Positions 59,577 to 62,118 of a DNA stretch of 64,000 nt are shown piece by piece. The stretch is taken from assembly GCA_946495655.1 (NCBI GenBank), contig CAMMDS010000005.1:730-64729 (forward strand). The letters run 5' to 3'. Within the stretch, counting starts at the first letter, position 1; every line of letters begins with the position of its first letter. Source of the DNA: an uncultured Clostridium sp. (GTDB taxonomy: Bacteria > Bacillota > Clostridia > TANB77 > CAG-508). The notes under the pieces were generated by a model, which did not search any database, had not been told where the DNA came from, and saw nothing but the letters and a program-made list of their open reading frames with translations. Position numbers and translations under genes: made by a program.

Positions 59577-59640
59577 GAGAAATTGGGGACAGACACATTT
59601 TGCTCAAATGATAAATTGGGGTCTGTCCCCAATTTATCAT
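59577..59640. repeat. type-1 repeat: GAGAAATTGGGGACAGA half-site plus a complete inverted hairpin
   Basis: gagaaattggggacagac-acattttgctcaaat-gataaattggggtctgtccccaatttatc. Confidence 0.8.
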
Positions 59641-59779
59641 TGTACATTATATGACCAATACGGTTGAAAAACCACCTTTTAACAGTTATAATATAATTGT
59701 TAGAAGGCGTTTTTTTAGTTTGTACTAAAAAATTCTAAATGATATAATGCAAATAATAAAATAGAAGGAGATGAGTAGT

Positions 59780-60835
59780 ATGTCTACTAAAAATGGAGTT
59801 GATAATAGAGCAGTATCAGAGGATTTAATGAATGAATTAATTAATGGTGGTTTCAAAGAATTTGTAAATTTTGTAAGACAATCAGAAAAGCCAAATAGTA
59901 AGTGTAAATTGGCTTTATGTTTTAGAGGTAATGATAACCCAGATAGTGTGGTTATATATTACAATAACCATATGGTATGGAAACTTAATATAGAGAAAAA
60001 CGGATCATTAGCGGTAACTATTAGCTATAATCATGCAAGATATAGCAAAGATTGGAAAGAAAAACTGGAGTTATTATGTAGTAAGAAATTTGGCTTTAAA
60101 GGTAAAAAAGAACCAGAAGATGGCTCAATAGGATATTTAAAAGCAATAGGAAATATATTTAGTAAAAACTTTGTAGAAGATAGTTTTAGAATTTTAAAGC
60201 CTCTTATCGATGATTTCTTTAATACAGATTTAAAGTTCGATTATTTTAAAGAGGAAAATGTAAAAACACATAGAAATTATATAGAAAAAATAAGACAACA
60301 AGAATTATATATGGAATTTGATAACTTAGATAATGGATTATTTGTTTATGATTTGGAATTTGCTCAAAAAAGAGTAGAAGAAGTATCATTAAATAATAAT
60401 CAACCTGACATGCTTGGAATTAGATTTAAAAATGGTAAACCAGAAAAAAGAGTCTTTATAGAAGTAAAATCTACAGAAGCAGCGGTAAAAGATTCAAAAA
60501 GTGGATTGAAAAAACATCTTATTGGAATGGAAGAGTATATAAAAGATGAAGTTGCGATTAGTAATAGAATAAAAGAAGCTTATCAAATTCTTGAACAGTA
60601 TAAAGAATTAAATCTAAGAAATGTAACTAATGTAAATGCAAATATGTTTGATACCAAATTACCAATAGAAATTCGTTTTATCTTGACTGATGAAGCAGCA
60701 GAATATTTTAAAAGAAATAAAAAATATTGGGAAAATAAAAAAGATGATGAAAATTATATATTAGAGAAATTTATGAAAAATAGAGGATATACAGTTGAAT
60801 ATGTAAATGCTGAATGTATTGAAATCTGGAAATAG
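59780..60835 (+). CDS. hypothetical protein with C-terminal PD-(D/E)xK nuclease-like motif (Shedu/DUF4263-like?)
   Basis: ...NNQPDMLGIRFKNGKPEKRVFIEVKSTEAAV... fits PD-x(n)-E-x-K. ATG 59780 is 9 nt after aaggag. I cannot name a family with certainty. Confidence 0.5.
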   Translation: MSTKNGVDNRAVSEDLMNELINGGFKEFVNFVRQSEKPNSKCKLALCFRGNDNPDSVVIYYNNHMVWKLNIEKNGSLAVTISYNHARYSKDWKEKLELLCSKKFGFKGKKEPEDGSIGYLKAIGNIFSKNFVEDSFRILKPLIDDFFNTDLKFDYFKEENVKTHRNYIEKIRQQELYMEFDNLDNGLFVYDLEFAQKRVEEVSLNNNQPDMLGIRFKNGKPEKRVFIEVKSTEAAVKDSKSGLKKHLIGMEEYIKDEVAISNRIKEAYQILEQYKELNLRNVTNVNANMFDTKLPIEIRFILTDEAAEYFKRNKKYWENKKDDENYILEKFMKNRGYTVEYVNAECIEIWK

Positions 60836-60891
60836 AAAGTAAAGTTAAGAATGTAGTTGAATAGACATATAATGATAGGAGACCAGAAATA

Positions 60892-62089
60892 ATGAAAGTT
60901 ATAATACATAGAGGTACTCATCAGATTGGAGGATGTATTACTGAAATACAATCTGAAAAAGGAACAAAAATTGCAATAGATATTGGTGAAAATCTACCAA
61001 CCATGGATGGAAAAGAAAAGATAGAAGTTGAAGTAGAGGGGTTAAATAAGGGAAAAGCAAGTTTTGATGCAGTATTTGTAACGCATTACCATGGAGATCA
61101 TATAGGGTTATATAATAAAATTTTACCTCAAATACCAATATATATAGGGGAAGACTCTAAACAAATATATAAAATATTACAATCAAAGCTCGAAAAAGCT
61201 GGGATTGTGTCTAAACAGGAATTAGAATTAATTGATAGTTTTAAAACATACAAAATCCCACAAAAAATCAGAATAAGAGATATTTTGATAACTCCTATAG
61301 AAGTTGACCATTCAGCTTTTAATGCGCATATGTTTTTGATAGAATGTGATGGGAAGAAATTACTACATACAGGAGATTTTAGAACTCATGGACAAAGAGG
61401 AAAAGCAGTCATACCAGCTTTGAAAAGTTATGTTGGACAAGTAGATTGTCTAATTTGCGAGGGCACTACACTATCAAGGAATAGAGAAGAATTAATGTCA
61501 GAAACAAAATTACAAAATGAAGCGGAGAAAGTTTTTAGAGAAAATAAGTATGTATTTGTAATGTGTAGTAGCACTAATATTGATAGAATTGCTGCTATAC
61601 ATAAAGCAACATTAAGAGCAAATAGATTATTTATATGCGACAAATACCAAAAGGAAATTTTAATGTATATAGATTCTATTTCAAGAAGTAGTTTGTACAA
61701 ATTCTATGGCAAAGTCCTAAGCTATGATAATAATATACTTCAGATTATGAAAGATAAAGGTTTTGTAATGCTTGTAAGAGACAACTATATTTCAAGGAAA
61801 GCCATGAGATTATTTCCAAAAAGTATATTCATTTATTCACAATGGGAAGGATATTTAAATGAAAAATTTACGGAATATAAACATATGCAAAAATTTGTAC
61901 CTAAAAACTATATCTATTTACATACAAGTGGACATGCAGACTTTAATTCAATAAAAAAGGTATGCGAAACTGTAAAGCCTAAAATGATTATACCAATACA
62001 TAGTGAAAGTCCAGAAGAGTTTGAAAAAATGCGGATTAAATGCTTGTACTATAAAATTAGCTAATGACAAGGAAATAATTATATTATGA
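60892..62089 (+). CDS. beta-CASP family MBL-fold nuclease; the C-terminus probably continues in +1 after CGG 62032 (the 0-frame would stop at 62064)
   Basis: THYHGDHIG (HxHxDH), VDHS, HTGDF, CEGT (motif A), HTSGHA (motif B), IPIHSE (motif C). The shifted tail is ...EEFEKM[G]LNACTIKLANDKEIIIL*. Confidence 0.7.
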
Positions 62090-62118
62090 GAAATTGGGGA
62101 CAGACCCCAATTTCTCAT
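62086..62118. repeat. type-1 perfect hairpin (14-bp stem, 5-nt loop) followed by a T-run; terminator of the island
   Basis: atgagaaattgggg-acaga-ccccaatttctcat then ttttttttt. Confidence 0.85.

Follow-up and report, generated by a model that had tools for sequence, protein, structure and literature searches.

A candidate two-nuclease cassette of Clostridia linking a PD-(D/E)xK-type protein to an RNase J-like beta-CASP enzyme

Introduction

Nucleases of the metallo-beta-lactamase (MBL) fold are proven defence effectors (bioRxiv 10.1101/2025.11.14.688446; PMC13069673), and Cas14 constitutes a precedent for the use of such an enzyme in defence (PMC10910872). In the present study we describe a pair of genes in which an MBL-fold nuclease is combined with a protein that resembles endonucleases of the PD-(D/E)xK type. 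The pair resides within a stretch of 64,000 nucleotides (nt) from an uncultured Clostridium sp. (assembly GCA_946495655.1, contig CAMMDS010000005.1, positions 730 to 64,729 of the forward strand), which is referred to as the window throughout, and its two genes are designated P1 and MBL. Judging from their sequences and those of their relatives, they very probably form a mobile cassette of two genes whose products are catalytically intact nucleases acting together. In addition we propose that this cassette was acquired horizontally and that its products most likely work as a complex, with foreign nucleic acid (phage or plasmid) being the most likely target; in our estimation this proposal may equally well hold or fail.

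Two properties of related enzymes bear on the function of the pair. Beta-CASP enzymes with a His at motif C belong to the RNA-acting CPSF73/RNase J branch, while a Val at this position marks the DNA-acting SNM1/Artemis branch. Both RNase J and SNM1A are 5'-phosphate-dependent exonucleases which proceed in the 5'-to-3' direction, and XPF as well as SNM1A act in interstrand-crosslink repair.

Results

Linkage of P1 and MBL

Between the second gene of an ABC exporter (57716-59575) and pgi (62174-63532) the window harbours two co-oriented open reading frames (ORFs), P1 followed by MBL (Table 1), which are the only ORFs on the coding strand of this island when a length of at least 50 amino acids (aa) is taken as threshold. 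The intergenic gap between them amounts to 56 nt and holds no terminator-like site on the coding strand. The ORF calls thus bear out the first-pass annotation, made from the sequence of the window, which had reported two co-oriented nuclease genes without metabolic context.

Loci containing P1 were gathered by tblastn and hidden Markov model searches of representative genomes and metagenomes and by exact-protein look-ups. After removal of redundancy at 95% identity 49 P1 ORFs remained, 40 of which are accompanied by enough flanking sequence to judge their surroundings. In 30 of these 40 informative loci an MBL gene is present beside P1 at a distance of at most 3 kb and on the same strand, and in five further ones both are fused to a single ORF with MBL forming the N-terminal and P1 the C-terminal portion, which adds up to 35 loci with a linked or fused MBL. 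Either gene order is found, P1-MBL as in the window and MBL-P1. In addition, about ten of the top 150 cluster representatives of the P1 family are proteins of 780-880 aa which carry P1 at their C-terminus, and all seven that were scanned possess an N-terminal MBL domain. As Rosetta-stone evidence, these fusions indicate that the two proteins act together. We regard the P1-MBL linkage as well supported. The first-pass annotation had named two computational findings that would speak against its proposal of a defence module, namely that the genes do not co-occur in other genomes or that their homologues belong to housekeeping RNA-processing operons. Yet, the genes do occur together elsewhere, as just described, and in the loci examined the homologues are not part of such operons.

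Within the pair P1 diverges faster than its partner, as exemplified by locus L006 with an identity of 50% for P1 and 69% for MBL. A distant P1 is also recognisable in the 392-aa protein which precedes MBL in L024 (hhalign probability 96.6%) and which retains the EK..Q / YD.E / D / EVK residues. A 351-aa protein encoded 5' of MBL in L026 was considered as a divergent P1 and rejected (hhalign probability 0.1%). One P1-less MBL homologue is located behind unrelated, uncharacterised proteins.

The P1 protein

The ORF of P1 (59771-60835) would encode 354 aa if read from its first start codon. The ATG at 59780 is better spaced to an AGGAG ribosome-binding site and leads to a protein of 351 aa, a length which is also obtained from metagenome gene calls. 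Residue numbers given below refer to the 354-aa form and have to be reduced by 3 for the 351-aa form. The motif QPDMLGIRF-x10-VFIEVKS, which the first-pass annotation had pointed out in the 351-aa protein, proved to be real and strongly constrained across 201 family members. E196 and D213 are present in all 201 of them, E172, Q176, D194 and E231 in 200 each, H249 in 199 and K233 in 198, meaning that the constellation of E172, D194, E196, D213 and E231-x-K233 is conserved to at least 98% (201 clusters).

An AlphaFold2 model of P1 calculated with the family alignment reaches a predicted local distance difference test score (pLDDT) of 92.8 and a predicted template modelling score of 0.90; for the C-terminal domain modelled separately the pLDDT amounts to 88.6. 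The C-terminal half is predicted to consist of a helix (171-182), three strands (188-194, 214-220 and 223-233), helices and a further strand (299-306), which corresponds to the alpha-beta-beta-beta-alpha-beta core topology canonical for PD-(D/E)xK. In this model P212-D213 opens strand 2 and E231-V-K233 closes strand 3, and further conserved acidic residues are placed on helix 1 and strand 1. Motif and predicted topology support the assignment of P1 as a putative PD-(D/E)xK-type nuclease.

P1 matches no model in Pfam, NCBIfam, PADLOC or PHROG, a Foldseek search of PDB and BFVD with the whole protein returned nothing at E <= 1e-3, and the family profile has no match among the PDB sequences at E <= 10. 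The top of the Foldseek list obtained with the isolated domain (E = 0.18 to 1.5) is mostly composed of PD-(D/E)xK proteins, comprising BstEII, bunyavirus cap-snatching endonucleases, BsmI, McrC, HincII and CinB. A weak match to VRR_NUC (E = 0.015) is seen in one of 43 family members. The resemblance to Shedu/DUF4263-type proteins put forward by the first-pass annotation is unsupported because none of these 43 relatives matches DUF4263; neither for them nor for P1 itself do Pfam and PADLOC return a DUF4263 or Shedu match at E values up to 1, and we rejected this affinity. For the N-terminal domain of about 160 aa, which is characterised by CFRGN, IYYNNH and NHARY motifs, no relative could be detected. 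Its residues R13, R52 and Y63 are conserved wherever the region is present.

The MBL protein

Alignment with RNase J locates the MBL motifs at D30, HYHGDH (65-70), H140 and D162 (HTGDF) and the beta-CASP motifs A, B and C at E190, H348 (HTSGH) and H370 (PIHSE), respectively. The catalytic motifs are invariant in all 23 homologues aligned, i.e. the window protein, 19 P1-linked partners and three proteins found without a canonical P1. The first-pass annotation was hence right in assigning a complete motif set to this enzyme, while the length of about 399 aa which it gave has to be corrected to 390 aa. RNA is a possible substrate in view of the His at motif C.

Two Pfam models are matched above their cut-offs, Lactamase_B_2 with 38.4 bits (cut-off 27) and RMMBL with 31.5 bits (cut-off 21.6). 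The nearest NCBIfam model is that of the RNase J family (TIGR00649; E = 2.9e-20), whose cut-off of 400 bits is missed by far with 72.2 bits; the score against NF047419 is 58.4 bits (cut-off 820). The closest relatives of solved structure are the uncharacterised protein EF2904 of E. faecalis (PDB 2az4; E = 7e-16) and B. subtilis RNase J1 (PDB 3zq4; E = 3.6e-14). The alignment with RNase J, a protein of about 555 aa, stops at motif C. We rejected the possibility that MBL is a bona fide RNase J, given the low scores and the missing C-terminal domain.

Insertion polymorphism and repeats

The pair is found at the same position in those contigs whose Pgi is 97-100% identical to that of the window (L028, L029 and L033). 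In contigs with a Pgi of 92% and 89% identity the same MarR-ABC-ABC-pgi-thrS synteny is present without the pair. At these empty sites 119 nt separate the ABC stop codon from the start of pgi; in between are found a single hairpin terminator, which belongs to the palindrome family described below, and behind it the conserved promoter region of pgi. The indel of 2,511 bp is flanked by a perfect 19-bp direct repeat (TGAGAAATTGGGGACAGAC; Table 1), and virtual excision of the segment between the repeat copies renders the window collinear with the empty sites. The right hairpin is homologous to the single terminator of the ABC operon at the empty sites. At the left junction a half hairpin precedes a full variant copy; the right junction consists of the intact terminator. 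The arrangement fits an insertion into the ABC-operon terminator, but it would look no different if the relatives had lost the segment by deletion between two copies of the hairpin.

The first-pass annotation had described the pair as bounded by hairpins. These turned out to be real, as the folding of each is much more stable than that of shuffled sequence (z = -6.2 and -6.5), but they do not constitute a bracket specific to the island because the palindrome is a dispersed terminator-like repeat. Sites of the palindrome family (consensus about GAGAAATTGGGGACAGACCCCAATTTCTC) are located at 20465-20485, 46417-46437, 59614-59634 and 62092-62112, all of them intergenic and 3' of plus-strand genes, with four sites in the window compared to 0.02 expected. 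With the palindrome present at two other intergenic positions, we rejected the hairpins as an island-specific bracket or as attC-like sites; an integron-type R' core was not seen by eye, no formal test having been made. The palindrome behaves like a terminator repeat or a repetitive extragenic palindrome (REP)-like element and may serve as a recombination hotspot.

Features and surroundings of the island

The features of the island are compiled in Table 1. The palindrome which overlaps the -10 box of the promoter-like site could be a second terminator of the ABC operon preventing read-through, or an operator for a regulator which is absent here. The GC content of the island (26-31%) is similar to that of its flanks and hence reveals no compositional anomaly.

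Table 1. Positions of the features in and around the P1-MBL island (numbering of the window; MFE, minimum free energy)
Feature	Position	Strand	Remarks
Left copy of 19-bp direct repeat, TGAGAAATTGGGGACAGAC	59576..59594	+	Left arm and loop of the palindrome; abuts the stop codon of the ABC exporter (59573-59575); identical over 19 nt to 62087-62105
Compound hairpin, in which a half copy of the dispersed palindrome is joined by a full variant one (ATGATAAATTGGGGTCTGTCCCCAATTTATCAT)	59576..59641	+	No U-tract; MFE -33.4 kcal/mol, z = -6.2
Island, 2,511-bp segment	59595..62105	+	Present here and in L033, missing from related genomes; boundaries arbitrary within the 19-bp repeat
Promoter-like site TTGAAA-17-TATAAT, 11 of 12 matches, 5' of P1	59664..59692	+	Consensus match only; regional number of sites not above shuffle expectation
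Palindrome with 15-bp stem followed by T-run	59675..59707	+	Overlaps -10 box of the P1 promoter-like site; nearly identical in related contig L033 (4432-4464)
P1, 351 aa (354 aa with start at 59771)	59780..60835	+	N-terminal domain about 10-160, fold without relative; C-terminal PD-(D/E)xK-type (predicted) nuclease domain about 165-354
MBL, beta-CASP metallo-beta-lactamase-fold nuclease, 390 aa	60892..62064	+	RNase J/CPSF73-like; motifs complete; no RNase J C-terminal domain
Intrinsic terminator, perfect hairpin with 14-bp stem and T9	62086..62127	+	Contains right copy of the 19-bp repeat (62087-62105); 3' of the MBL stop codon; followed by the conserved pgi promoter region

An Rfam scan detected no RNA family within or near the island; its matches elsewhere in the window, which are unrelated to the island, are a tmRNA gene (156 bits; 42772-43132, minus strand) and two tRNA genes (42589-42660, minus strand; 31385-31464, plus strand). 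A SpoIIP-like gene (53952-55076) is located immediately 5' of the MarR gene. In one of the related genomes devoid of the island (L034, 1-938) a pair resembling a diversity-generating retroelement (bAvd and a fragment of RVT_1) is found about 2 kb 5' of the MarR-ABC operon.

Size and hosts of the P1 family

While a word-indexed search retrieved 66 relatives of P1, an exhaustive profile search covering 1.84 billion representatives yielded 855 clusters (50% identity) at E <= 1e-3, 214 of them at E <= 1e-30. P1 loci were encountered in Lachnospiraceae, Oribacterium, Butyrivibrio, Pseudobutyrivibrio, Acetatifactor, Dorea, Anaerocolumna, Oscillospiraceae and other Clostridia, and the family is concentrated in Clostridia of gut and rumen (Lachnospiraceae, Oribacterium, Butyrivibrio and Oscillospiraceae). 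Neither 50,697 phage genomes nor 72,556 plasmids contain a P1 match, and among 2.9 million viral contigs a single one, the IMG/VR contig L038, carries the gene in the order HTH-MBL-P1 (HTH, helix-turn-helix). The scarcity of such matches implies that the module is mainly chromosomal or located on uncharacterised integrated elements. A phage or plasmid origin was rejected, P1 being absent from phage genomes, plasmids and PHROGs and present in no more than this one viral contig. P1 appears to be encoded by the host rather than by phages, which supports a role in defence.

Apart from the fusions with MBL, P1 is fused to an N-terminal class-I SAM methyltransferase domain in P0035 (591 aa), and P0218 (625 aa) and P0260 (652 aa) bear extensions of about 300 aa without Pfam match. 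Second copies of P1, in tandem or nearby, are found in L014 (7342-12298), L052 (2726-4961), L013 (9980-16120), L049 and L053; an example of such doubling is the order P1-WYL-MBL-P1 in Butyrivibrio sp. AC2005. In loci without MBL, P1 adjoins other AAA+ ATPases, or PIN, DUF6998 and a Schlafen-like helicase. The latter arrangement, a defence-like alternative pairing, is represented by L047 (6583-11813), where the P1 homologue is flanked by PIN7/NYN, DUF6998 and a Schlafen-group-3-like helicase.

Larger loci elsewhere

Clustering of the neighbouring ORFs of about 20 distinct loci revealed three recurrent accessory genes. A WYL-domain regulator, homologous across loci, directly adjoins the pair in ten of them. 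Seven loci contain a SpoVK/CbbX-type AAA+ ATPase, which measures about 520-690 aa and is preceded by a long extension at its N-terminus; in the forms of 676-688 aa this extension accounts for about 400 aa. A FliG_C-domain protein of about 340 aa, mostly next to the ATPase, is present in five. In L031, L032 and the viral contig L038 a small HTH regulator takes the place of the WYL protein. None of the recurrent accessory genes matches a named system, and tblastn shows the WYL, AAA+ and FliG_C genes to be absent from the window. Examples combining all three are L017 (5264-11182), L019 (7724-14815), L065 (6961-14517) and L001 (5640-12510). These fuller loci look like a system of four to five genes, with the window containing no more than its core.

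Scanning 150 neighbour ORFs and further loci, we encountered genes of the defence type, namely AbiEii, ParE, MADS genes, a type-IV-like HNH gene and an N6-methyltransferase/Eco57I gene. Replication genes as found in mobile elements comprise DnaB, DnaG-like, DnaA-like, PolIII-alpha, RNase T and resolvases. A Schlafen-like helicase and a PIN domain also belong to the neighbours in related loci, as do integrases besides the resolvases. Among the conserved neighbours no protease was seen except an FtsH-like M41 protein (three neighbour ORFs, and also L045).

Discussion

Proposed function of the cassette

Several observations fit a role in defence: the variable presence of the pair in close relatives, the modularity of its partners and regulators, the defence-type genes among its neighbours at other loci, the fast evolution of P1 and the precedent of MBL effectors. 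Taken together, they leave us about evenly divided as to whether this role applies. If it does, P1 would recognise its target, with the N-terminal domain serving as recognition module, and cut it endonucleolytically so as to leave a 5'-phosphate end, from which the beta-CASP enzyme would degrade the nucleic acid in the 5'-to-3' direction. In many other genomes the pair would be controlled by a WYL or HTH regulator and joined by the SpoVK/CbbX-type AAA+ ATPase and the FliG_C protein, and the window would represent a minimal core which makes use of its own promoter-like site and a recycled ABC-operon terminator. Demonstrated by the sequence data are the motifs, the topology of the fold as predicted, the linkage and fusion of the genes and the insertion polymorphism; complex formation, the division of labour into endo- and subsequent exonucleolytic attack, the substrate and the defence role itself are what we infer. 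Carried further, the window might hold the minimal core of an undescribed anti-phage or anti-plasmid system of Clostridia in which a PD-(D/E)xK sensor-endonuclease recruits or licenses an RNase J-like beta-CASP nuclease, both forming a complex and being fused in some lineages, while fuller versions are gated by WYL and by SpoVK-type AAA+/FliG_C proteins. This more elaborate version we put forward tentatively, as one that may somewhat sooner fail than hold.

A number of points weigh against a defence system of two cooperating nucleases. No defence model of PADLOC v2 or NCBIfam 20.0 is matched above its threshold by the pair. When P1 is compared with solved nucleases, neither its sequence nor its fold gives a match of statistical significance; for the isolated domain even the top result of Foldseek (BstEII, E = 0.18) is not significant. 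Five of the 40 informative loci contain P1 without MBL and, conversely, close MBL homologues (60-76% identity) also occur without a canonical P1. The most conspicuous of these is found in L022 (4650-10213), where an MBL 76% identical to that of the window is located, in the absence of P1, between a 445-aa fragment of PolIII-alpha and a full PolA; this context suggests a different role for the MBL subfamily, tied to replication or mobile elements. (The element in L022 also bears Fic, DUF3846 and SLT genes.) DnaB, DnaG-like, DnaA-like, PolIII-alpha and RNase T genes recur around the pair as often as defence genes, and an enrichment of the latter is not established because the neighbour counts were made without background control. 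WYL regulators govern DNA-damage regulons as well. Finally, the window copy, lacking regulator and ATPase, might be a degenerate remnant, although both of its ORFs are intact.

Alternative explanations

By analogy to XPF/FAN1 and SNM1A, the pair could be engaged in accessory DNA-damage repair, with a structure-specific incision made by the PD-(D/E)xK protein, resection performed by the beta-CASP 5'-exonuclease and, at loci with a regulator, induction by WYL-type damage sensors (PafBC, DriD). We deem this explanation unlikely, even though the established function of XPF/SNM1A in crosslink repair lends the analogy some appeal, as do the WYL regulators adjoining the pair in half of the approximately 20 loci, the vicinity of RuvA (L056) and PcrA (L031) as well as of RNase T, DnaB and PolIII-alpha elsewhere, and the position of the MBL homologue in L022 next to two polymerase genes. 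A repair function is, however, difficult to reconcile with a pair that is missing in close relatives at an otherwise identical locus, whose distribution is patchy (only 855 clusters among all representatives searched), whose partners are swapped and whose loci are often situated inside mobile elements. Moreover, motif C of MBL contains the His and not the Val of the SNM1/Artemis DNA enzymes in the classification given above, and the window contains neither LexA/SOS nor the structure of a repair operon.

Rather improbable in our view is that the nucleases are cargo of integrative elements or prophages, which would employ them for replication, processing or host takeover or as an addiction or anti-defence module. 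Such a use would agree with the pairs of Oribacterium and Butyrivibrio that adjoin DnaA-like, DnaG-like and FtsH-like genes of the kind typically carried by integrated elements, with resolvases or integrases in L024 and L032, with the viral contig carrying HTH-MBL-P1 and with the L022 enzyme, which lies inside the polymerase module of an element. The cassette of the window, in contrast, stands alone without any mobile-element genes, and P1 is absent from the phage genomes, plasmids and PHROGs searched and all but absent from the viral contigs. The element context fits defence too and cannot separate the two readings because defence systems commonly ride such elements.

That P1 and MBL constitute a housekeeping RNA-processing pair, i.e. 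an RNase J paralogue and its cofactor, is very improbable because the pair is absent from close relatives; the kinship of MBL to the RNase J family and to RNase J1, its motif C His and the above-cut-off match to the "RNA specificity" domain RMMBL would favour such a pair, but the score of 72 bits against the RNase J cut-off of 400, the lack of the C-terminal domain (390 versus about 555 aa) and the lack of ribosomal or RNA-processing neighbours in the loci examined for gene content speak against it.

Implications

Should the proposed defence role prove true, the cassette would introduce a new effector pairing into bacterial immunity, a PD-(D/E)xK-type protein and an RNase J-like beta-CASP nuclease, either separate or fused, and it would provide a function for a family of about 855 clusters (50% identity) for which Pfam, NCBIfam and PHROG offer no model. 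Provided that RNA is the substrate of the beta-CASP enzyme, as suggested by motif C, the module would confer immunity independently of CRISPR and would be based on a ribonuclease of the RNase J type. Defence in gut and rumen Clostridia is under-explored and of relevance to microbiome engineering as well as phage therapy. Cloning and testing would be easy owing to the minimal form with two genes and to the natural fusions, and the combination of endonuclease and 5'-exonuclease is amenable to biochemical testing.

Comparison with described systems

The pairing of P1 and MBL is described neither in PADLOC v2, NCBIfam 20.0, Pfam or PHROGs nor in the literature searched. In line with this, the statement of the first-pass annotation that it is not one of the named defence systems is confirmed for PADLOC v2 and NCBIfam 20.0, in which no match is found. 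Avs2/Avs4 and HamMAB with their protease-activated MBL, 6A-MBL, the type VII Cas14 system and Lamassu LmuA-MBL resemble the pair in that an MBL-fold nuclease is part of a small mobile accessory operon. As in the P1-MBL module, partners in these MBL defence systems are swapped in a modular fashion, and the WYL-type regulators at P1-MBL loci have counterparts at CRISPR, BREX and CBASS loci. Unlike the MBL defence systems, however, the pair has no protease, STAND, helicase, Cas7/Cas5 or SMC partner, and among them a PD-(D/E)xK-type partner of the MBL is unique to the P1-MBL module. The window MBL scores 16 bits against the 6A-MBL model NF058524 (cut-off 220) and does not match the Cas14 model NF045584, against which the MBL partner in L001 attains 26 bits (cut-off 800); its match to PADLOC LmuA (E = 7e-5) is confined to residues 19-74. 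With scores far below the cut-offs and the required partners absent, 6A-MBL, Cas14, LmuA and protease-activated MBL were rejected as identities of the system.

Compared with the individual enzymes, P1 would share with members of the PD-(D/E)xK superfamily such as BstEII, HincII, McrC and the bunyavirus cap-snatching endonuclease the Asp on strand 2, the ExK on strand 3 and the core topology, but it differs from them in its Foldseek E values of at least 0.18 and in belonging to no Pfam, NCBIfam or PHROG family. P1 and Shedu (SduA, DUF4263) would have in common that a nuclease of the PD-(D/E)xK type is combined with a sensing region at the N-terminus; Shedu, though, is a single-gene system, whereas P1 is tied to a beta-CASP partner. 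MBL, in turn, agrees with the RNase J/CPSF73 branch in its full motif set, the HTGDF and HTSGH blocks being almost identical to those of RNase J, and deviates from RNase J in that it lacks the C-terminal dimerisation domain and is a mobile accessory enzyme whose gene is linked, or even fused, to that of a PD-(D/E)xK-type protein. The eukaryotic combination of XPF/FAN1 with SNM1A would follow the same logic of a PD-(D/E)xK-type endonuclease and a beta-CASP 5'-phosphate-dependent exonuclease. This likeness is one of analogy only, as P1 has no detectable homology to XPF/FAN1 and MBL is, with its His at motif C, of the RNase J/CPSF and not of the SNM1 type. Built around a family which is modelled in none of the four libraries searched, the candidate cassette is a small mobile nuclease module of a known kind.

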